Shown: piece after piece, positions 12,609-21,093 of the stretch | Layout of the letters: each line of letters starts with the position of its first letter | How positions within the stretch are numbered: position 1 is the stretch's first letter | Origin: a virus | Lineage: Duplodnaviria; Caudoviricetes | Virus record (IMG/VR): IMGVR_UViG_3300013426_000017 | Location: 96,001 to 160,000 of that record | Length of the DNA stretch: 64,000 nucleotides | Direction: 5' to 3' (one strand) | Made by a program: the position numbers and the translations under genes | Notes under the pieces: generated by a model | Told to the model about the DNA's origin: nothing | Databases searched by the model: none | Seen by the model: only the letters and a program-made list of their open reading frames with translations

Positions 12609-12910
12609 TGGCTGACTTAGAAGTAGCTGTTAAAACTGATGAAATTTTTGACCGGTTAATAAAAAATATTAATGAAGCACAAGATACATTTGATGAATAT
12701 ACTAATAACTATAAGGGTTATATGTATGACAGTTTATGTTACCGTTATCAGTTAGCTCGTTATAAAGCTTGTGAAGCAGATGCTATAGATTTAGTTATGA
12801 CAAAAGGAATTTCTAAACGAGAAGCAGAGACTAAGGCATACCAAGCATATGAAAGAGATTGCTTACGATTCTGTCAAATTCTAGATGAAGCGATAGGTGA
12901 ACACAATTGA
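12608..12910 (+). CDS. Hypothetical protein
   Basis: GGAGG RBS; overlapping stop/start with neighbours. Confidence 0.7.
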   Translation: MADLEVAVKTDEIFDRLIKNINEAQDTFDEYTNNYKGYMYDSLCYRYQLARYKACEADAIDLVMTKGISKREAETKAYQAYERDCLRFCQILDEAIGEHN

Positions 12911-15201
12911 TTTTAACAGAAAAACAACAGAAAGGATTGGACTTGGCCGTAGCCCGCTACAATGAGCACAAAGCTTATACTTGTATAGCGGGCTACGCAG
13001 GTAGCGGAAAAGCTCAACCAGTTGATACTATTATACCAACGCCCAATGGGAATATAGAATTAGGACAACTCAAAATAGGCGACTATGTTTTTGACAGATT
13101 AGGTAAACCTACAAAAATCTTAAATATATACCCGCAAGGAACAAAAGAAAAGTATAAAATAATTTTGTCCGACGGAAGAGAAACTATTTGTGCGAGTGAC
13201 CATCTATGGAGTTATTATACAAATAGTGGAAAATTGGTTTCTAAAACAGCTCAAGAAATGCTTGATAGCGGGTTAAGGAAACGCAATGGGTTTAAATATA
13301 AAATTCCAACCAGTGAGCCAGTTCAATATTCTACGAAGCAATATGAGATTGACCCTTATTTAATGGGTGTTTTTATAGGAGACGGCTGTTGCAAACAAAG
13401 ATATTTGACAATTTCCTCAGAAACGGATGAAATCCCAAATTTAATAGGAGAAATAATTGACGCAAAACCTATAAGAGGAACGGAAAAGAATTATAGCTGG
13501 ACTTTTGAATGGAATAATAAAGCAGAAACAATTAATTGGGTCTGTGGTAATAATGGACAACGAGTCGCTAAGAGAAAGAAACCAAAAACCTTAGATTATT
13601 TTGCAAAATATAAAGACTATTTAATGCAATATGCCTATGAGAAAGATATACCGCCCGAATACAAATTTGGAGATATTGACCAACGTTTATCTTTAATTCA
13701 AGGTTTGATGGATACTGATGGCACCATTAATAGCGTAGATAACCATCGTTATAATATGAGATTTACATCAACCAGCTTAAAATTAATTAAAAGCTTACAA
13801 GAAATTTTATTTAGTTTAGGATATTCTTCTACAATTCACATAGACAAAAGAGAAAAAAAATATACTAATAAGATTTGTTATAATTTAGGAATTAATATCC
13901 CCAACGAAGAGAAACACAAGTTTTTTAGGCTAAAACGAAAAAAAGATATAGCACTAGAGGCTCAAAAATATCCGAAACAAAAAGACTATAGTAGAATTTC
14001 TATTGTCGATATAGTACCTCTAAAAGAAAAAACAGAAATGATTTGTATATATGTAGACAATCCAGAACATCTATATTTAACAAATGATTATATTGTCACT
14101 CATAATACAACATTAGTAAAATTTATTATTAAAGCACTTGGTGTCCCGAATAGCCAAGTAGCCTATGTCGCTTATACTGGTAAAGCAGCAGCAGTATTAC
14201 AAGCCAAAGGCAACCCAAATGCAACAACTGTTCATAAGTTAATTTATCATGCATACCCTACCAAGACCGGAAAGTATAAATTTCGGCCTAAGCTAACATT
14301 AGATGATGCGTATAAGGTATTAGTTGTAGATGAGGTATCTATGTTGCCTAAGTCCATGTGGGATTTATTGTTATCCTATAAAGTTTATGTCTTGGCTTGC
14401 GGCGACCCCGGCCAGTTGCCTAGCTTATTTAAAAATGAACGCAATGACATTCTTGACCATCCCCATATTTTTCTTGATGAAATTATGAGACAAGCGCAAG
14501 ATAGTGAGATTATTAGATTATCTATGCATGTCAGAGAAGGGAAGCCAATATCAACATTTGATTGTAAAAACGAGCAGGTTCAAATTGTTCATCGAAATGA
14601 AATGCAAAGCGGGATGTATACTTGGGCCGATCAAGTTATATGTGCTACCAATAAAACTCGCAATTTTATTAATAAGCTTGTTCGAGAGTATAAAGGACTC
14701 GATCCAAATAAACCATGTGTAGGCGATAGGATTATCGGCTTACATAACGACTGGGATACCTTGTCTGATAATGGCGAATGGGCATTAACCAATGGAACCA
14801 TTGGGACAATATTAGGTTATGAGGTTGAAAACCAATGGGTCACGCCACGTCTCAAACTGCCTATCAAAGATATAGATATAGCATATACTGATTTTGAATT
14901 AGATGATGGTAGCGTATTTTCTGAAATCCCAATTGATTATCAGGGTTTGGCAACGGGAGAATTGGTTTTAGATGATTTGGCTCGGTATAGAATGGCCAAT
15001 TGGGAACAAAGTAATTTATATCCGCCCCATGATTTTGTTTATGCTTATGCAATTACTTGTTGGAAAGCACAAGGTAGTGAATATAATAAAGTGTTGCTAA
15101 TTGAAGAAGACCATCCATTTGATAAACTTGAACATATCCAGTATTTATATACGGGTATCACTCGAGCCAAGGACAAACTAGTAGTAGTAATTAAAGATTA
15201 A
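12907..15201 (+). CDS. RecD/Dda-like SF1B helicase, intein-containing
   Basis: GYAGSGK/TT Walker A split by intein; VVDEVSM, GDPGQL, AITCWKAQGSE, YTGITRA. Confidence 0.9.
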   Translation: MILTEKQQKGLDLAVARYNEHKAYTCIAGYAGSGKAQPVDTIIPTPNGNIELGQLKIGDYVFDRLGKPTKILNIYPQGTKEKYKIILSDGRETICASDHLWSYYTNSGKLVSKTAQEMLDSGLRKRNGFKYKIPTSEPVQYSTKQYEIDPYLMGVFIGDGCCKQRYLTISSETDEIPNLIGEIIDAKPIRGTEKNYSWTFEWNNKAETINWVCGNNGQRVAKRKKPKTLDYFAKYKDYLMQYAYEKDIPPEYKFGDIDQRLSLIQGLMDTDGTINSVDNHRYNMRFTSTSLKLIKSLQEILFSLGYSSTIHIDKREKKYTNKICYNLGINIPNEEKHKFFRLKRKKDIALEAQKYPKQKDYSRISIVDIVPLKEKTEMICIYVDNPEHLYLTNDYIVTHNTTLVKFIIKALGVPNSQVAYVAYTGKAAAVLQAKGNPNATTVHKLIYHAYPTKTGKYKFRPKLTLDDAYKVLVVDEVSMLPKSMWDLLLSYKVYVLACGDPGQLPSLFKNERNDILDHPHIFLDEIMRQAQDSEIIRLSMHVREGKPISTFDCKNEQVQIVHRNEMQSGMYTWADQVICATNKTRNFINKLVREYKGLDPNKPCVGDRIIGLHNDWDTLSDNGEWALTNGTIGTILGYEVENQWVTPRLKLPIKDIDIAYTDFELDDGSVFSEIPIDYQGLATGELVLDDLARYRMANWEQSNLYPPHDFVYAYAITCWKAQGSEYNKVLLIEEDHPFDKLEHIQYLYTGITRAKDKLVVVIKD
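13012..14106 (+). mobile_element. Intein (365 aa, Ala1, class 3-like) with LAGLIDADG domain
   Basis: AQPVDT...DHLW...MICIYV...IVTHN/T; MGVFIGDG and LIQGLMDTDG. Confidence 0.9.
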
Positions 15202-15245
15202 GTGGCGGCCCCCGCTCAACCGGGCAAGTAATCTGGCGGCGCCAC

Positions 15246-15274
15246 TTGACATAGGCAAAAATATATGTTATAAT
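15246..15274 (+). promoter_or_regulatory. sigmaA-type promoter for dnaE
   Basis: TTGACA-N17-TATAAT with TG. Confidence 0.8.
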
Positions 15275-15326
15275 TAATTATTAAGAAAAAGCAGTGTGCA
15301 CAAATATAGAAGTGAGGTGAGGGAAA

Positions 15327-18300
15327 ACGAAGACACAAGAACATTTAATTTATCCAGGTAGTCTTCATAATTAGCCATACCGATTATAGTAATATTAGAT
15401 TGCGTGATGCGATTAGTCGATATGATGAGTTAATTGATTTAGCAATCTCATTAGGACATACTTGTATTGCGTTTACTGAACATGACTGTGTATCTAATGC
15501 CGTTAAAATTCAAAAATATTATCGCAAGATAAAAGAAAAACATCCCGATTTTAAAGTAATATTAGGTAATGAGATTTATTTATGTCATGATGAGATGGAT
15601 AAAGAACATTACAACAAGGGTGAAGATAAATTTTTTCATTTCATTCTATTGGCAAAAGATGCCATAGGCCATCAGCAAATTCGAGAAATTTCAACTCGAG
15701 CTTGGATGCGTTCATGGATGGATGGTAAAATGCGTCGTGTTCCAACTCATTATCAAGATTTGATAGATATTATTGGTAAAAATCCTGGCCATGTAATTGG
15801 TAGCAGTGCTTGTCTTGGTGGCTTCTTGCCCACACTAATTCTTAAAGGGAAAGACAATCCTAATATAGATATTACACCAATAATTCATTCTTGGTTTGAT
15901 AAAATATTGAGCATTTTTGGAAAAGACAATTTTTATTTTGAATTGCAACCTCCTGCAAAAAAGGATAATGAACAAGATTATGTAAATCAATATCTATATA
16001 ATCTATCTAAAGATTATAATATTCCATTCATTATTACTACAGATACTCATTATCCTACAAAAGATGATGCATTTATACATAAAGCGTATTTAAATTCTCA
16101 GAATGGTGAACGTGAGGTTGATAGTTTTTATGCAACTACTTATCTTATGGATACAGATGAAATAGAAAAGTATTTTTCAGTATCTAATATAGATGTATCA
16201 TTAGCATATCAAACCATTCAAAAAATTGCAGATCAATGCGAAGACTATGATTTAACTCGTTCATTAAAAATTCCTCGTTTACGTTGGAAAAGTGCTCAAT
16301 TTTCATATCTAACATTTGAATCCAAATGGTATGATTTAATTCCAATGATTAAACATTTTATGGATTCAGATTATGATGGAGATAAACTATTAGTTAATTT
16401 ATTAATAGAAAAAATTCGTTCAGATGAACGTCTACAAAATCAAGCGACTTACGATGCTGTTAATACTTGTCTTCAAATGACATGGGAATCATCTGAGATT
16501 AATAACACTCATTGGTCAGCGTATTTCCTTAATCTGCAAAAAATTATTGATGTATGTTGGGAAGCCGGAACGTTGGTCGGTCCTGGTCGAGGTTCTGGCG
16601 TCGGCTTTATTTTGCTATACCTATTAGATATTACTCAGATCAACCCGCTATGGGAAACTACACGAACTTTTCCTTGGCGTTTCCTTAATCCTAGTCGTGT
16701 TTCTGTATTGGACGTTGATGTTGATATCGAAGGGTCTAGACGTGGTGAGGTTTTGAGCAAGCTGCGCCAAGTATATGGACAAGATCGAGTAGCAAATGTT
16801 ATTACATTTGGTAGTGAAAAGAGTAAAAGCGCTATATTGACAGCCGCCAGAGGATTAGGTATTGATAGTGATGAAGCACAATATATTTCATCATTAATAC
16901 CAGCAGACCGTGGACAAATTAGAACATTATCACAATGTTATTATGGTGATAAAGATAATGATTTTAAACCAGTATCCCAATTTATTAGTGCCATGAATAA
17001 TAATCCTGAGTTATGGCGCGTAGCACAAAAGATAGAAGGTTTAGTATGCCGCTCAGGTATTCATGCTGGTGGCGTTATCTTTGTAGATGAACCTTTTACC
17101 AATACTACAGCTTTGATGCGGGCGCCTGACGGCACAATAATCACAGCTTACGATCTTCATGATGCGGAAGACTGTAGTTGACGAAATGTTAGGCTACTAA
17201 ATATCTAACTGTTTATCAGCAGCGTATTATAGGCAGCATTCTGCGTAAGTAAAAAATACCTATAATGCGTCGGGGAAGCCTAAGTCTATAAAAAGATATG
17301 GTAATCCCGAACCAAAATATTAAAGTAAGTGTTTAATTTATCTATATATGAAAGGTGGTGAAAAGACAATGTATGTTTATAAAATTACAAATAAAATTAA
17401 TAATAAAATTTATATAGGAATTACAAATAATATTGAAAAACGTTGGGGAAATGAAAAAAGCTATCCTTCAGACCCAAAAAGACGACAAGTAATCCAAGAA
17501 GCGATACATAAATATGGAGTAGAAAATTTCAAATTTGAAATATTAGAGCGCAATTTATCTATTGAGCAAGCAGTTGCCAAAGAAATGCATTTAATTCAAG
17601 AATTAAAATCGCTCGTTCCTAATGGATATAATATAGATTCTGGTGGTTATTATCATCCAAAATGTGCCCCTCAATATGGCGCTGATAATGGACACGCTAA
17701 ATTAACTCAAGAAGAAGCGCAATATATTTTAGATCACCGAGACCAACCCATTTATTTATTATATGATGAGTTCAGTGATAAAATTTCATACGAAGCTTTT
17801 TTAAAAATTTATAATCATAAAACATATACTAATTTAACTACGTCAGTAGATATTTACCCTTATAATCGTGAATTTTCTGGTCAATTTACGAGTGGTCCAT
17901 TAGATTATGATGATATAGTAAAAATCAGAATTAGATATTCAGATGGAGAATATTGGCGCGATGTATATGAAGATTATAAATGGGCCTATGATAATGAGTG
18001 GACCTTTTGGAATGTATACTATGGTAATAGATATAAATTAGTAATGCCTGAAGTTTTTACTAAGGAAAATCGCCATAAACATGCGGGACGTAGCAAATCT
18101 GGAACTTTAAATGGCCGAGCTAAACTTATTGAATCAGATGTTCTTGCAATTCGAGAAAAATGGCAGAATGGCGCCACACGACAAGAATTATATCTTGAAT
18201 ATCCACAAGTGTCTACTACTTCAATTTGTGATATTATTAATGGAAAAACCTGGAAACATTTACTTTAATATATGTGTGTATCGACTATCCCCGGTTAGAC

Positions 18301-20492
18301 GGGGAGTAGAGCATCTATTGATACGATGTTCGAAACGGTATTCTTTTACAAATTATTGTAGAAGTAAGAGATAGTCAGGACATATAGAAATATATGACAA
18401 ACTGCTAATTAAGTACGATTTATTGAGCATTGAAGCGCTAGATAAAATGCATATTTGTCTAGATCTGTTACATGATTATAATTTGATACCAGATGGTACA
18501 ATTAAAGAGCGATATGATAAAATTTTAAATATTTATACCATTAATCGTACCGATCAGAACATGTGGCATAAAGTATGGAATCATGAAATATTATCATTAT
18601 TTCAGATGGAGAAGCAGAGCGGTATTAAAGGTATCGCCACATTAAAGCCTACGTCAGTTGATGATTTATCAGTTTTAAATTCTACTATTCGACTTATGGC
18701 GCAAGAAGGCGTTGATGAAATGCCAACTGATAAATTAGCAAGATTTAAAGCTGACCCAAAAGCTTGGGATAGAGAATTAGCACAATGGGGTCTTGGCACC
18801 TTGGAAAAATCTATTCTTGAACCAATCCTGAAATCATCTTATGGTCTATGTATTACACAAGAGCAGTTCATGGAACTGGTTCAATTACCTGAACTAGGCG
18901 GCTTCTCATTAACCTGGGCAGACAAATTACGTAAATCAATCGCGAAGAAAAATCCAGCAGCATTTGATGCATTAACCGAAGAATTTTATGCTACCACAAA
19001 AGAAAAACATATAAAAGAAAATTTCGCAAAATATGTGTGGCAAGTCCTAATTAGTATGTCGAAGGGATATGGATTTAATGCTTCTCATACGCTAGCCTAT
19101 TCGCTCATTGCGCTACAGGAAATGAATCTTGCAACAAGATTCCCAATTATTTATTGGAATTGTGCTTGTTTAATTAATGATAGTGGTACCGGTATAGATG
19201 ATAATGATGCATGCATTGATTATGATGAACTCGAAAATGAAAAGGATAAAGCAAATACTGATTACGAAAAACTAGCTCGTGGAATCGGCAAAATGAAAGA
19301 CTTTGGAGTCCAAGTTAATTTGGTCGATATTAATAAATCTGGATTTACATTTGTTCCTGATGCTGAAACAAATACCATCTATTGCGGTTTGAAAAGTATG
19401 CTCAATATTAATGATGATATTGTAAATCAAATCATTGAGAATCGTCCTTATTCATCGCCTAAAGATTTCTACCAAAAGGTAAAGCCAAAGCGCCAAGCAA
19501 TGATTTCATTAATCAAAGGTGGCGCATTTGATTCCATGATGGAACGTAGCGATTGTATGATTTGGTATATTTGGGAAACCTGTGATAGGAAAAGTCGTAT
19601 TACATTGCAGAATATGCCAAGTTTAATTAAATATGATTTGCTACCAAAAGATACAGAAGAACGTAAAACTGCATTTCGAGTTTATGAATTTACAAAGTAT
19701 TTAAAAGCGACATGTAAGAACAAGGCAAAGCCTGGTTATTATATTCTAGATACTAGAGCAATTAATTTTCTTGTTGAAATAAAATGCGATGATAAAATTG
19801 AAATGAAAGAGCAAGAGCTTGTATTAGACGAAAAAGTCTGGGATAAAATTTACCAAAAATGGATGGATGTTTATCGAGCTTGGATTAAGAGTAATCATGA
19901 CCAAATCTTGCAAGATTTAAACACTATTATATTCTATGAAGATTGGAAGAAGTACATTAAGAAGAATAATTATTCTGCTTGGGAAATGGAAGTGCTGTGT
20001 TTCTATTATCATGCCCATGAATTACAAGATGCTAATGTGGCGAAGTATGGAATAAAAGATTTTTATAAATTACCAAAAAACCCGATAATTGAATATTCGT
20101 ATCCAATTAAAGATAGAATAATTAATATTTACCAATTAACCAAAATTTGCGGCACTTGTATTGCCAAGAATAAAAATAAATCTACTATATCATTACTTAC
20201 GCCTAGCGGTGTTGTAGAAGTAAAATTTGCAAGAGATTTTTTCTCAATGTATGATAAGCAAATATCTCAGCGCCAAGAGGATGGAAAAAAGAAAATCATA
20301 GAGCGTAGTTTTTTCCAGCGCGGTAGCATGCTCATGATTACCGGTATACGTAGTGATGATATGTTTATTTGTAAGAAATATAAAAACACCCCTGGACACA
20401 GATTGTATAAAATAGAAGAAGTGGCGCCAGATGGTGATTTAATATTAAGAAGTGAAAGATACAAAGGAGAAATGGAAGAAGATGGCATATAA
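15327..20492 (+). CDS. dnaE: DNA polymerase III alpha subunit; spliced (17178 joined to 18405), 5' end anomalous
   Basis: PHP motifs (HTDYSN, FTEH, TTDTHY), GRGSG, LDVDVD, GIHAGG, S-LIKYDLL after splicing, YGFNASH; start uncertain (see findings). Confidence 0.88.
17179..18404 (+). mobile_element. Group I intron in dnaE
   Basis: P1 GTAGT/GGCTAC with U.G pair; CGGGGAA, AATCCCGAACC, ATCGACTA, AAGAGATAGTC; terminal G before CTA ATT AAG. Confidence 0.9.
17348..18268 (+). CDS. Intron-encoded GIY-YIG homing endonuclease (start may be the second Met, MYVYK)
   Basis: YVYKITN...IYIGIT; repeated NGxAKL DNA-binding modules. Confidence 0.88.
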   Translation: MKGGEKTMYVYKITNKINNKIYIGITNNIEKRWGNEKSYPSDPKRRQVIQEAIHKYGVENFKFEILERNLSIEQAVAKEMHLIQELKSLVPNGYNIDSGGYYHPKCAPQYGADNGHAKLTQEEAQYILDHRDQPIYLLYDEFSDKISYEAFLKIYNHKTYTNLTTSVDIYPYNREFSGQFTSGPLDYDDIVKIRIRYSDGEYWRDVYEDYKWAYDNEWTFWNVYYGNRYKLVMPEVFTKENRHKHAGRSKSGTLNGRAKLIESDVLAIREKWQNGATRQELYLEYPQVSTTSICDIINGKTWKHLL

Positions 20493-21093
20493 AATCTTGG
20501 CACTCATGGGTGCTGCTGGTGTGGGCAAAAGCGCCGTGCTTCATGCACTCATGACCCAGGCGCCTCGCTTCCATGAAATTATTAGCTGCACTACTCGCCC
20601 TCCTAGAGAGGGTGAAGTAGATGGTATTAACTATCATTTTTTATCACATGATGATTTTGCTGAACAAATTAATCAAGGAAAAATGATGGAAGTGGCAATA
20701 TTTCGTGGTTGGTGTTATGGCACCTCATTTGATAATTTGGCGCCAGATAATATAAATGTCGGCGTATTTAATCCGTCAGGTATTGCAATGCTAATGGATG
20801 ATAGTAATATAGATCTGTTTCCTGTTTGGATTCAGGCATCTGATAAAACTCGGCTATTACGCCAGTTGAATCGAGAGCACAATCCCGATGTAAAAGAAAT
20901 CATTCGTCGATATTCTACTGATGAAGAAGATTTTAGCGATATAATAATAAAAGATGATCTAGGGTATAAAGCCTATTATGAATCATACCCTATTGCAATT
21001 ATTAACAATGAAAATCGCACACCAGAAGAAACAGCAATAGAAATTCTAAATCTTGTATCCGCTTGGACAAAATCAGATAATTTATCTATTTAA
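20482..21093 (+). CDS. gmk: Guanylate kinase-like nucleotide kinase
   Basis: GAAGVGKS; TTRPPREGEVDGINYHF; YGT. Confidence 0.85.
   Translation: MAYKILALMGAAGVGKSAVLHALMTQAPRFHEIISCTTRPPREGEVDGINYHFLSHDDFAEQINQGKMMEVAIFRGWCYGTSFDNLAPDNINVGVFNPSGIAMLMDDSNIDLFPVWIQASDKTRLLRQLNREHNPDVKEIIRRYSTDEEDFSDIIIKDDLGYKAYYESYPIAIINNENRTPEETAIEILNLVSAWTKSDNLSI

Follow-up and report, generated by a model that had tools for sequence, protein, structure and literature searches.

A putative short stop-hop site at a stop-led insert in phage dnaE

How can a phage make its replicative polymerase from a gene that opens with ACG and, after 15 codons, meets a stop codon and a change of reading frame? The question is raised by the dnaE gene of the window, by which we mean the whole stretch of 64,000 nt analysed here. 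A TGA at 15318–15320 closes the leader frame just upstream, and the frame therefore has no canonical start. The relevant features, all on the + strand, are as follows.

15246–15274, +: sigma-70/sigma-A consensus promoter for dnaE (TTGACA, 17 nt, TG-n-TATAAT), with 12/12 hexamer matches and an extended −10 TG
15313–15319, +: Shine-Dalgarno sequence GAGGTGA, 7 nt 5′ of the ACG
15327–15329, +: ACG where the start codon is expected; it may be a weak near-cognate start, or else a private mutation or an error
15327–15371, +: leader ORF of 15 codons, TKTQEHLIYPGSLHN, with the first His of the PHP HxH motif
15329–15366, +: hairpin (predicted fold) in which GAAGACAC (15329–15336) pairs with GU.AGUCUUC (15358–15366)
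15369–15371, +: take-off codon AAT (Asn), the final sense codon of frame 0
15372–15374, +: in-frame stop TAG, the A-site codon at take-off; the 4-nt insert TAGC consists of it and C 15375
15373–15375, +: proposed landing triplet AGC, 4 nt 3′ of take-off and near-cognate for tRNA-Asn (A-U, G-U, C-G)
15376–17181, +: dnaE exon 1, in the +1 frame from the resume codon CAT (second His), encoding the PHP and Pol III alpha domains
17182–18404, +: intervening sequence, presumed to be a group I intron, with a GIY-YIG endonuclease ORF inside (17348–18268); boundaries approximate
18405–20492, +: dnaE exon 2 (finger and HhH domains), to the stop codon

The promoter and ribosome-binding site that an earlier note on this DNA had described ahead of the ACG are both present. 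Its central claim, that the frame is broken by TAGC and that removal of these 4 nt repairs the HxH motif, is confirmed: CAT ACC GAT TAT AGT (HTDYS) follows TAGC in the +1 frame, and skipping TAGC restores SLHNHTDYS. The Thermus Pol III alpha (2hpi) segment HLHQHTQFS aligns with this joined motif, and the Pfam PHP match scores 86.8 bits with TAGC skipped against 79.5 bits without the skip, then reaching profile position 2. The join between take-off and resume codons leaves no residue extra or missing relative to the 10-residue G-to-N spacing of all intact loci (112/112). Stop reassignment or readthrough (code 15) was rejected as a solution, since reading TAG as sense leads in the wrong frame to the TAA at 15390 that the note had pointed out, and to a second TAG at 15387. 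A 1323-aa uninterrupted relative aligns through its residues 9–617 to 15373–17205 and through 609–1322 to 18405–20483; the gap between the two parts contains the GIY-YIG ORF. A search of 15000–21000 against Rfam at E up to 0.01 returned no family, the presumed dnaE intron included. An intact relative is colinear with both exons, each of which is open, and comparison with the sister phage L003 gives a dN/dS of 0.031. These observations rejected a pseudogene and bear out the earlier argument that ~1,300 intact codons speak against gene decay. The gene is single-copy and is the sole replicative polymerase gene of the genome, which is 96% complete and in which a family A polymerase is absent.

We compared the window with relatives in the form of dnaE alleles on gut and rumen phage contigs, ~130 of them distinct. 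A stop-led insert lies inside the stretch encoding GSLHNHTDYS/N at 59 of 171 classified loci, or ~40/130 by distinct allele, and a further clade and some MAG contigs supply additional ones beyond the 171. The inserts fall into 26 types, every one of which begins with a stop codon. TAG, TAA and TGA are all used, take-off occurs at four codon positions, and the shifts range from 4 to 12 nt, with relatives that carry shifts of 5, 8 or 11 nt and others with in-frame 9- or 12-nt inserts; in-frame examples are CAT-TAG-TTT-ATT-CAT and TCT-TAA-CAA-TCT. The earlier note had regarded a contiguous CAT AAT CAT in relatives as the mark of an error or private mutation. That arrangement does hold for about two thirds of the relatives, but about a third have stop-led inserts of their own, among them the L086 lineage (59% protein identity) with an AAT-TAGC-CAT identical to that of the window. 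The sister phage L003 (96–97% protein identity) carries a different insert, in which the stop is TAA; just 5′ of the site (15270–15330) its DNA identity to the window is 51–56%, as against 85–93% on both flanks. In L035-type alleles the insert is TAAC, with the cognate triplet AAC, from which the AGC of the window is one A-to-G change away.

With TAA in the sister phage and TGA in other alleles, the stop need not be UAG, and the late-gene switch by suppressor tRNA that had been suggested for this site is therefore rejected as a selected function. In the genome collection, relatives are confined to MAG contigs from gut and rumen bins of Firmicutes type and to one Lachnospiraceae isolate genome, whose allele is intact; the nearest DnaE relatives in cultured phages (Enterocloster, Staphylococcus, SPbeta) are ~40% identical. 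The family-wide insert pattern, like the link to a homing endonuclease described below, lies outside what the window sequence alone shows.

The inserts follow a rule in the relation between take-off and landing. We defined the landing triplet as the triplet 5′ of the resume codon, assuming that the canonical spacing is restored. In 15 of the 26 insert types this triplet is synonymous with the take-off codon (binomial p about 1e-10, a statistic that, like the allele counts, ignores shared descent), and in all 26 it pairs with the P-site anticodon at two or more of the three positions. The window landing, AAU to AGC, is near-cognate only, its middle position being a G-U pair. Three insert types have AGC after an Asn take-off, at +4 in the window and L086 and at +8 in L077/L079/L136, and the H2-site types land on AAU, UAU or GAC, with a first-position mismatch to tRNA-His. 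A scan of the genome for long open frames preceded by a short leader and a stop, with a synonymous triplet no more than 12 nt away, had no discriminating power: its 26 hits were taken as chance out-of-frame matches, and it missed the true dnaE site because AGC is not synonymous with AAT.

Purifying selection is seen where inserts are present. Within insert-bearing clades dN/dS is 0.01–0.05 at dS 0.2–0.7. Among 23 distinct insert-bearing alleles the leader codons for Y-P-G-S-L-H vary mostly at third positions, and the leader is thus under protein-level constraint; leaders also tend to start M-K-T. The local RNA fold around the window site is not significant (z = −0.3). A helix between the start region and the first His codon, of 6–10 bp, is also found in the other N-site and H2-site insert alleles; it occurs in insert and intact alleles alike, with a mean of 7.6 bp in the former versus 5.7 bp in the latter. 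In the predicted hairpin of the window, ATG in place of ACG would let the start codon pair with CAU, the first His codon. The phage genome also encodes a tRNA with a CUA anticodon; this tRNA, tRNA-Asn and tRNA-Ser(GCU) all have ordinary 7-nt anticodon loops.

In several relatives the insert does not stand alone. Endonucleases of one GIY-YIG clade, defined by phmmer E < 1e-36 to L013:842-1600, are encoded directly 5′ of dnaE in 9 of 40 distinct insert alleles and in none of 90 intact ones (Fisher p = 1.2e-5, phylogeny ignored); the carriers are L012/L075, L013/L095, L051, L062, L069, L153, L130, L132 and L177. The stop codon of the linked endonuclease overlaps the dnaE start, and the 3′ end of its ORF is a GGTGATGC(T)AA motif that precedes the dnaE start in many insert-bearing relatives and that the Shine-Dalgarno sequence of the window resembles. 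When L051 is aligned with the intact L047, homology starts exactly at the landing CAT; as far as such alignments go, the 3′ end of the cassette in relatives is the landing codon. L132 and L064 have a common insert; what separates them is the clean loss of ~785 nt, endonuclease gene included. Among cultured phages, the nearest relatives of the linked endonuclease are no more than 34% identical to it. The anatomy of the MobA element as described by Manning and Atkins (bioRxiv 10.1101/2022.08.31.505936) agrees with this cassette. We also considered a MobA-like endonuclease directly 5′ of dnaE in the window itself; the gene there encodes a RecD-like helicase with an intein, followed by the promoter, and no endonuclease of the linked clade was found anywhere in the window's genome.

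We think it rather likely that TAGC is a natural short stop-hop, or translational bypass, site (AAU to AGC, +4) whose insert originated in an endonuclease-plus-bypass cassette. Ribosomes would translate the 15-codon leader and pause with peptidyl-tRNA-Asn on AAU (15369–15371) and UAG in the A site. Some of them would then shift the tRNA by 4 nt onto the near-cognate AGC (15373–15375) and resume at CAU 15376, giving DnaE with the normal ...YPGSLHNHTDYS... N-terminus, and those that terminate would release just a 15-residue peptide. We infer the hop itself, and its efficiency, from sequence. In this respect the comparative evidence favours what the earlier note had put first, namely programmed recoding at the UAG by hop or frameshift.

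The insert of the window would then be one allele in a family of stop-led inserts that lie where dnaE encodes the HxH motif. Several relatives carry such an insert as the 3′ end of a mobile cassette, in which a GIY-YIG homing endonuclease gene is followed by a ribosome-binding site, a replacement leader, the stop and a spacer. On the analogy of T4 mobA/gene 60, the insert would break the endonuclease target, which we infer to lie in dnaE, and so protect its carrier, and hopping would leave the essential polymerase functional. Lacking such an endonuclease, the window would have an insert that is an orphan relic or an immunity-only allele, and it is probably one or the other, on the same analogy. 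For the large clade as a whole, the balance of the evidence inclines slightly towards gut and rumen phages with DnaE-type polymerases that routinely use natural stop-hops of 4–12 nt right at the 5′ end of dnaE, at any stop, which arose as the immunity part of a GIY-YIG cassette.

Among other explanations, a +1 frameshift at AAU-UAG-C, with Ser-tRNA(GCU) reading AGC or tRNA-Asn slipping by one base to give ...SLHN-S-HTDYS..., is unlikely, though the most probable of them. In formal terms, 4 extra nt with a stop in the A site call for a +1 shift, as prfB does; the phage has a reader of AGC in its own tRNA-Ser(GCU); and TAAC alleles of the L035 type could be read likewise to give N-N-H. However, moving from AAU to AUU produces a middle-position mismatch, so that tRNA-Asn would re-pair poorly, and the upstream GUCUUCAU has no Shine-Dalgarno sequence 3 nt 5′ of the shift site; the RF2-type mechanism was rejected on these two points, a re-pairing P-site codon and a Shine-Dalgarno sequence at about 3 nt. 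The product would also have an extra Ser inside HxH, against the uniform spacing of the intact loci. Nor would +1 frameshifting rescue shifts of 5, 8 and 11 nt, and the AGC landing recurs in the +8 type, in a frame beyond +1 restoration. In-frame 9- and 12-nt inserts are likewise beyond its reach, and plain frameshifting is thereby ruled out for them, where a hop between matched codons could serve. Far less probable, and in our view hardly tenable, is an error of assembly or sequencing, or an RNA- or DNA-level loss of the 4 nt through editing, a micro-intron or polymerase slippage; we found nothing in favour of either. Inserts of 26 different sequences come from dozens of independent assemblies that differ in study and host; slippage would lack a homopolymer run to act on; and we know of no self-splicing intron as short as 4–12 nt. 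The assembly error and the intron scar that the earlier note had allowed for, and likewise a private mutation, are excluded for the insert by the presence of stop-led inserts in about a third of the alleles and of the identical TAGC in L086.

The start codon raises a different possibility, a little less probable than frameshifting: that the window copy is impaired or dead, with ACG and a near-cognate landing yielding little or no DnaE, because the genome is defective or recently mutated or because of a base error in the start codon. The ACG is a private feature of the window contig. It is the sole allele of the ~130 without a canonical start, the others having ATG, GTG or TTG there; the window leader aligns with GTG AAG ACA of L177; and this leader, when sought in viral contigs with any base allowed for the C of ACG, matched no other contig. 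Very low expression is expected from an ACG start, which is why the copy might be impaired, and the window is only one T-to-C and one A-to-G change from a canonical ATG plus TAAC allele. Against this, the other ~1290 codons are open under the purifying selection seen relative to the sister phage (dN/dS 0.03), L086 has the same TAGC with a normal TTG start, and the genome has no replicative polymerase gene other than dnaE. It is also conceivable, though we think it improbable, that the leader is a separate upstream ORF and that DnaE lacks its first ~15 residues, being made by re-initiation after the stop, for example at ATT 15370, ATT 15394 or TTG 15400. A few insert types do have an in-frame GTG or TTG at or beside the stop, namely TA-GTG-CAA (L015 type), cat-TTG-ACC (L131 type) and GTG-AAC (L094), but most, the window included, have no canonical in-frame start near it, and TTG 15400 is TTA in the sister phage. 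Re-initiation would give a product without one or both HxH histidines, would leave the matched take-off and landing triplets without explanation, and is at odds with the codon-level constraint that keeps YPGSLH(N)(H) in the leader. Initiation at ATA/ATT 15367–15372, another earlier suggestion, is not upheld for similar reasons: the insert types share no conserved in-frame start 3′ of the stop, and the leader is constrained.

A short stop-hop at this site would have consequences beyond the window. To our knowledge, natural efficient bypassing is confined to few systems, namely T4 gene 60 and its homologues, the yeast mitochondrial byps and one candidate Streptomyces phage, and in the full-text literature we found no report of bypassing or hopping in phage dnaE. 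The family would amount to a natural mutational series for the rules of short-range hopping, with more than 26 variants that differ in take-off codon, stop, landing codon and length of the gap but share one context that is short and portable. The inserts would also be a second case of a homing endonuclease and a recoding signal travelling together, and would support an origin of bypass elements in the self-immunity of mobile DNA. For annotation, the practical result is that dnaE of these phages will be cut short or divided by gene callers and labelled a pseudogene by pipelines.

The dnaE sites can be compared with several known systems. The +1 frameshift in prfB, the RF2 gene, requires a slippery CUU-U and a Shine-Dalgarno sequence 3 nt upstream; an early A-site stop triggers recoding there as proposed here, but both of these elements are absent at the window site. 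The mitochondrial byp elements of Magnusiomyces capitatus, reportedly the subject of work by Lang in 2014 and Nosek in 2015, are likewise numerous short mobile coding inserts that ribosomes skip between matched codons, but they are 27–55 nt long, GC-rich, structured, mitochondrial and without an associated endonuclease. Synthetic stop-hops in E. coli, engineered and of low efficiency, are said to have been obtained by Weiss, Dunn, Atkins and Gesteland in 1987. In these, as proposed for dnaE, a peptidyl-tRNA crosses a stop to a matching codon a few nucleotides on, over a short distance and independently of frame. A 2016 review (PMC5009743) states that no natural in-frame stop-hop was known and that shorter counterparts of bypassing had long been presumed. 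The dnaE sites differ from the synthetic ones in being natural, conserved and located in an essential gene, and, if our interpretation is correct, they would be the first natural use of stop-hops so far known solely from synthetic constructs.

In the terminase of the Streptomyces phage phiHau3, a case reportedly due to Smith in 2013, short coding gaps likewise interrupt an essential phage gene. The passages of Antonov 2023 (PMC10732093) that deal with it give gaps of 7–10 nt, with 10-nt inserts after UUA, argue for bypassing over frameshifting from junction conservation, and describe a junction peptide detected by mass spectrometry in E. coli. According to the same passages, which report no endonuclease link, such inserts are present in 3 of 100 terminase genes, and the trigger differs from that in dnaE in being UUA, a rare sense codon with links to the physiology of the host (PMC10732093).

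If the hop is real, the dnaE inserts would be a second, independent and far more diverse counterpart of T4 mobA/gene 60. The gene 60 bypass and its MobA homing endonuclease cassette are said to have been described by Huang in 1988 and Bonocora in 2011. In both systems a stop follows the take-off codon, take-off and landing codons are matched, in dnaE across the insert family more than in the window with its near-cognate pair, and the insert lies within a conserved motif of an essential replication gene. The relatives extend the likeness to the order of parts, in which an endonuclease ORF is followed by a new ribosome-binding site, by an N-terminal segment that is homologous to the host sequence it replaces, and finally by the bypass; to the cassette that ends at the landing codon, with an endonuclease ORF overlapping the downstream start; and to endonuclease-less alleles of a ‘hit and run’ kind. 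The differences are equally clear. The window has no endonuclease, and no take-off stem-loop is evident in dnaE. The linked endonuclease is GIY-YIG rather than HNH, and the host gene is dnaE, at its PHP HxH motif, rather than a topoisomerase subunit gene. The dnaE gap is 1–9 nt (shift 4–12 nt) compared with 50 nt in T4, take-off is at codon 12–20 compared with 46, and, unlike gene 60, the dnaE family has at least four take-off positions, all three stops and many landings that are only near-cognate.

The dnaE gene is present in one copy in the phage genome, where no family A polymerase was found in the about 96% complete, 175,406-bp virus contig of which the window covers bases 96001–160000. 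The ACG start, TAG break and +1-frame continuation described in the earlier note are exact, with ACG at 15327, TAG at 15372–15374 and the CAT that resumes dnaE downstream. The leader, a short ORF from ACG 15327, encodes TKTQEHLIYPGSLHN and ends at this TAG. It lacks a canonical start because TGA at 15318 closes the frame just upstream of the ACG. Exon 1 is a 601-codon frame opening CAT ACC GAT TAT AGT one base past the TAG, and reading TAG as sense indeed dead-ends, at TAG 15387 and then TAA 15390.

Features of the dnaE locus (window coordinates, except the last)
12907–15201: RecD-like helicase gene, upstream of dnaE, carrying a LAGLIDADG intein
15246–15274: perfect sigma-70-type promoter between the helicase gene and dnaE
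15313–15319: Shine–Dalgarno GAGGTGA
15327: ACG at the dnaE start position, seven bases past the Shine–Dalgarno
17182–18404: intervening sequence between the dnaE exons, holding a 306-aa GIY-YIG ORF (17348–18268)
genome C1:51020–73595, outside the window: nine phage tRNA genes

The remainder of dnaE is intact, as had been proposed: residues 9–617 of a 1323-aa uninterrupted relative align with 15373–17205 and residues 609–1322 with 18405–20483, and dN/dS against L003, the locus of the sister phage, is 0.031 at a dS of 0.69. In the intervening sequence 17182–18404, none of the Rfam group I intron models matched (E up to 0.01). The dnaE genes of L004, L006, L014, L024 and L033 are interrupted at other positions (first open frames 432–845 aa). 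The RecD-like SF1 helicase is 764 aa long with a LAGLIDADG_3 domain at residues 259–321, and its homologue in L003 has 377 aa; the intein is therefore absent from the sister.

Viral and metagenome contigs and genome bins yielded about 220 related loci (33–97% DnaE identity to that of the window). Many of their 5' ends carry a short, invariably stop-led insert within the same handful of codons. Classification used the invariant 10-residue spacing from the G of GSLH to the N of SNxRLRD, which is kept in 112/112 intact loci. Inserts are present at 59 of the 171 classified loci (55–97% identity), giving about 40 distinct insert 5' sequences versus 90 intact ones; a further clade has 7 insert-bearing and 10 intact loci, and more cases occur on MAG contigs. 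The comparison with relatives suggested in the earlier note thus divides: the majority are contiguous, whereas the 59 carry stop-led inserts and L086 has the identical AAT-[T]-AGC. Take-off follows the first His, the Asn, the second His or the Ser of L-H-N-H-T-D-Y-S (the first three giving H1-, N- and H2-site alleles), and all three stop codons are used.

Representative inserts (take-off codon, gap in brackets, landing codon; shift in nt)
window, L086: AAT-[T]-AGC, +4
L035 clade: AAT-[T]-AAC, +4
L004: AAT-[TA]-AAC, +5
L177: AAC-[TGAGG]-AAC, +8
L094: AAC-[TAGGGTG]-AAC, +10
L015 clade: CAT-[TAGTG]-CAA, +8
L051 clade: CAT-[TAGTTTATT]-CAT, +12, in frame
L003 (sister of the window phage): CAT-[TA]-AAT, +5
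L013: CAC-[TAGC]-TAT, +7
L084: TCT-[TAGCG]-TCA, +8
L166: TCT-[TAACAA]-TCT, +9, in frame

The inserts are patchily distributed on the DnaE tree, and their presence differs between close sisters (L015 clade versus L018, L013 versus L028, L004 versus L032). The window and its 96–97% identical sister carry different inserts. A single A-to-G change separates the window TAGC from the L035-type TAAC, converting UAA to UAG and the landing AAC to AGC.

Translational bypassing is marked by a take-off codon, a stop in the A site, a matching landing codon and resumption of translation. Assuming resumption at the codon that restores canonical spacing, the preceding triplet is synonymous with the take-off codon in 15/26 insert types, against a chance expectation of 2–8% per type (binomial p about 1e-10, the types being not fully independent). 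The P-site anticodon pairs with this triplet at at least two of three positions in 26/26 types; at the H2-site landings AAU, UAU and GAC, the first codon position mismatches tRNA-His. We infer from this sequence pattern the signature of bypassing, in which the ribosome would leave the take-off codon with a stop in its A site, land on the matching codon and resume. Without TAGC, the window dnaE reads ...YPGSLHNHTDYS...; its PHP match gains in score, from 79.5 to 86.8 bits, and now reaches profile position 2, and the joined residues align with Thermus Pol III alpha at HLHQHTQFS. For the window alone a +1 frameshift adding a Ser is a less likely alternative, which we rank second after the hop. 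The shifts span 4, 5, 7, 8, 9, 10, 11 and 12 nt, so that a single frameshift direction is insufficient, and Asn take-off followed by AGC is also seen in L077/L079/L136, whose +8 insert a +1 shift could not accommodate. Frameshifting in either direction could not rescue the in-frame inserts.

Within insert-bearing clades, dN/dS is 0.01–0.05 at a dS of 0.2–0.6 (420 codons), and L012, L013 and L015–17 have full-length frames of 1322–1326 codons downstream of the insert. Among 23 distinct insert alleles, variation in the leader codons for Y-P-G-S-L-H falls mainly on third positions (entropy 1.0, 1.69 and 1.85 bits in the first three codons, compared with 0–0.56 at their first and second positions). 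Translation of the leader therefore occurs in its own frame, under selection for the same residues as in the intact DnaE N-terminus, which argues against a disposable upstream ORF. Together, low dN/dS, open frames and leader constraint exclude gene decay on comparative grounds, and with the recurrence in relatives they also dispose of the assembly error that the earlier note had allowed for.

Among about 130 alleles only that of the window has a non-canonical start, the ACG, which could reflect weak initiation, a recent mutation or a base error. A helix of 6–10 bp is predicted between the start codon region and GUCUUCAU ending at the first His codon in the remaining N-site and H2-site insert alleles; in H1-site alleles a different sequence, AAACUAC with GUAGUUU, fills the same role. 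Intact alleles have shorter versions of this helix (mean 7.6 bp in insert-bearing alleles versus 5.7 bp in others). Most alleles, whether insert-bearing or intact (e.g. L015:2955–2991, L094, L101), can pair the start codon and next 4–7 nt with codons ending at the first His (AUG with CAU). The modeled helix would mask the start codon and is a candidate stimulator, which may act by start masking or by driving forward movement.

A 5' module is common to insert-bearing alleles: its ribosome-binding site is GGTGATGC(T)AA-like and its leader usually starts M-K-T. One GIY-YIG endonuclease clade (Pfam GIY-YIG; phmmer E < 1e-36 to L013:842–1600) lies directly upstream of dnaE in nine distinct insert alleles of six insert types, that is, 9/40 insert versus 0/90 intact alleles (Fisher p = 1.2e-5, kinship ignored). 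The endonuclease ORF either ends in a stop that overlaps the dnaE start (ATGA or TAATG) or continues into the leader. L051 and intact L047 are unrelated upstream, with about 91% identity starting exactly at the landing CAT; L132 and L064 have identical inserts and differ by a clean 785-nt presence/absence of the endonuclease gene; and between L013 and L028, identity of 91% or more begins only some 190 nt past the insert. The linked-clade ORF at L012:2232–2954 (L075:732–1454 on the same contig) is open for about 240 codons, but from its first ATG/GTG/TTG the product would be only 133 aa long and lack the GIY-YIG domain. The gene may be degenerating, or its own start may be atypical.

Adjacency alone does not predict an insert, because other GIY-YIG clades (L028-like, L005-like) adjoin intact alleles. 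Free-standing genes of these two clades, one with NUMOD1 and HTH domains, lie directly upstream of intact dnaE at L028:2118–2972, L005:615–1352, L082:594–1466 and L098:609–1466. Endonuclease insertion appears to have a general hotspot at the 5' junction of dnaE. No linked-clade endonuclease was found anywhere in the window phage genome, and the window leader most resembles that of L177, which has one; the most plausible reading of the window insert is thus an orphan relic or immunity-only allele.

The phage tRNAs, all with normal anticodon loops, include a CUA-anticodon suppressor that reads UAG, a tRNA-Asn(GUU) that reads the window take-off codon AAT and a tRNA-Ser(GCU) that reads the proposed landing codon AGC. 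The suppressor would compete with the hop late in infection. Since TAA or TGA takes the place of TAG in sister alleles, the suppressor-tRNA switch proposed in the earlier note is not supported as the function under selection. An in-frame TAG in the L004 helicase gene upstream of dnaE (1508–2716) suggests that other clade members also recode TAG.

A literature search found no report of bypassing or hopping in phage dnaE. The closest known system is T4 mobA/gene 60, followed by synthetic stop-hops, the phiHau3 terminase (PMC10732093) and mitochondrial byps. The T4 gene 60 bypass is carried by the MobA element: an endonuclease is accompanied by a new N-terminal segment, related to the host sequence that it displaces, and by a bypass cassette ending at the landing codon, and the insert makes its carrier immune to the endonuclease of the element (bioRxiv 10.1101/2022.08.31.505936). 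The dnaE cassette matches this anatomy point for point and, by analogy, its inserts would disrupt a site that an endonuclease targets within the conserved HxH-coding stretch. Unlike T4, the cassette has a GIY-YIG rather than an HNH endonuclease and dnaE as host gene, with very short gaps, take-off inside the first 20 codons, many take-off positions, all three stops and frequent near-cognate landings; the scale of the inferred hop is that of stop-hops in synthetic constructs (PMC5009743).
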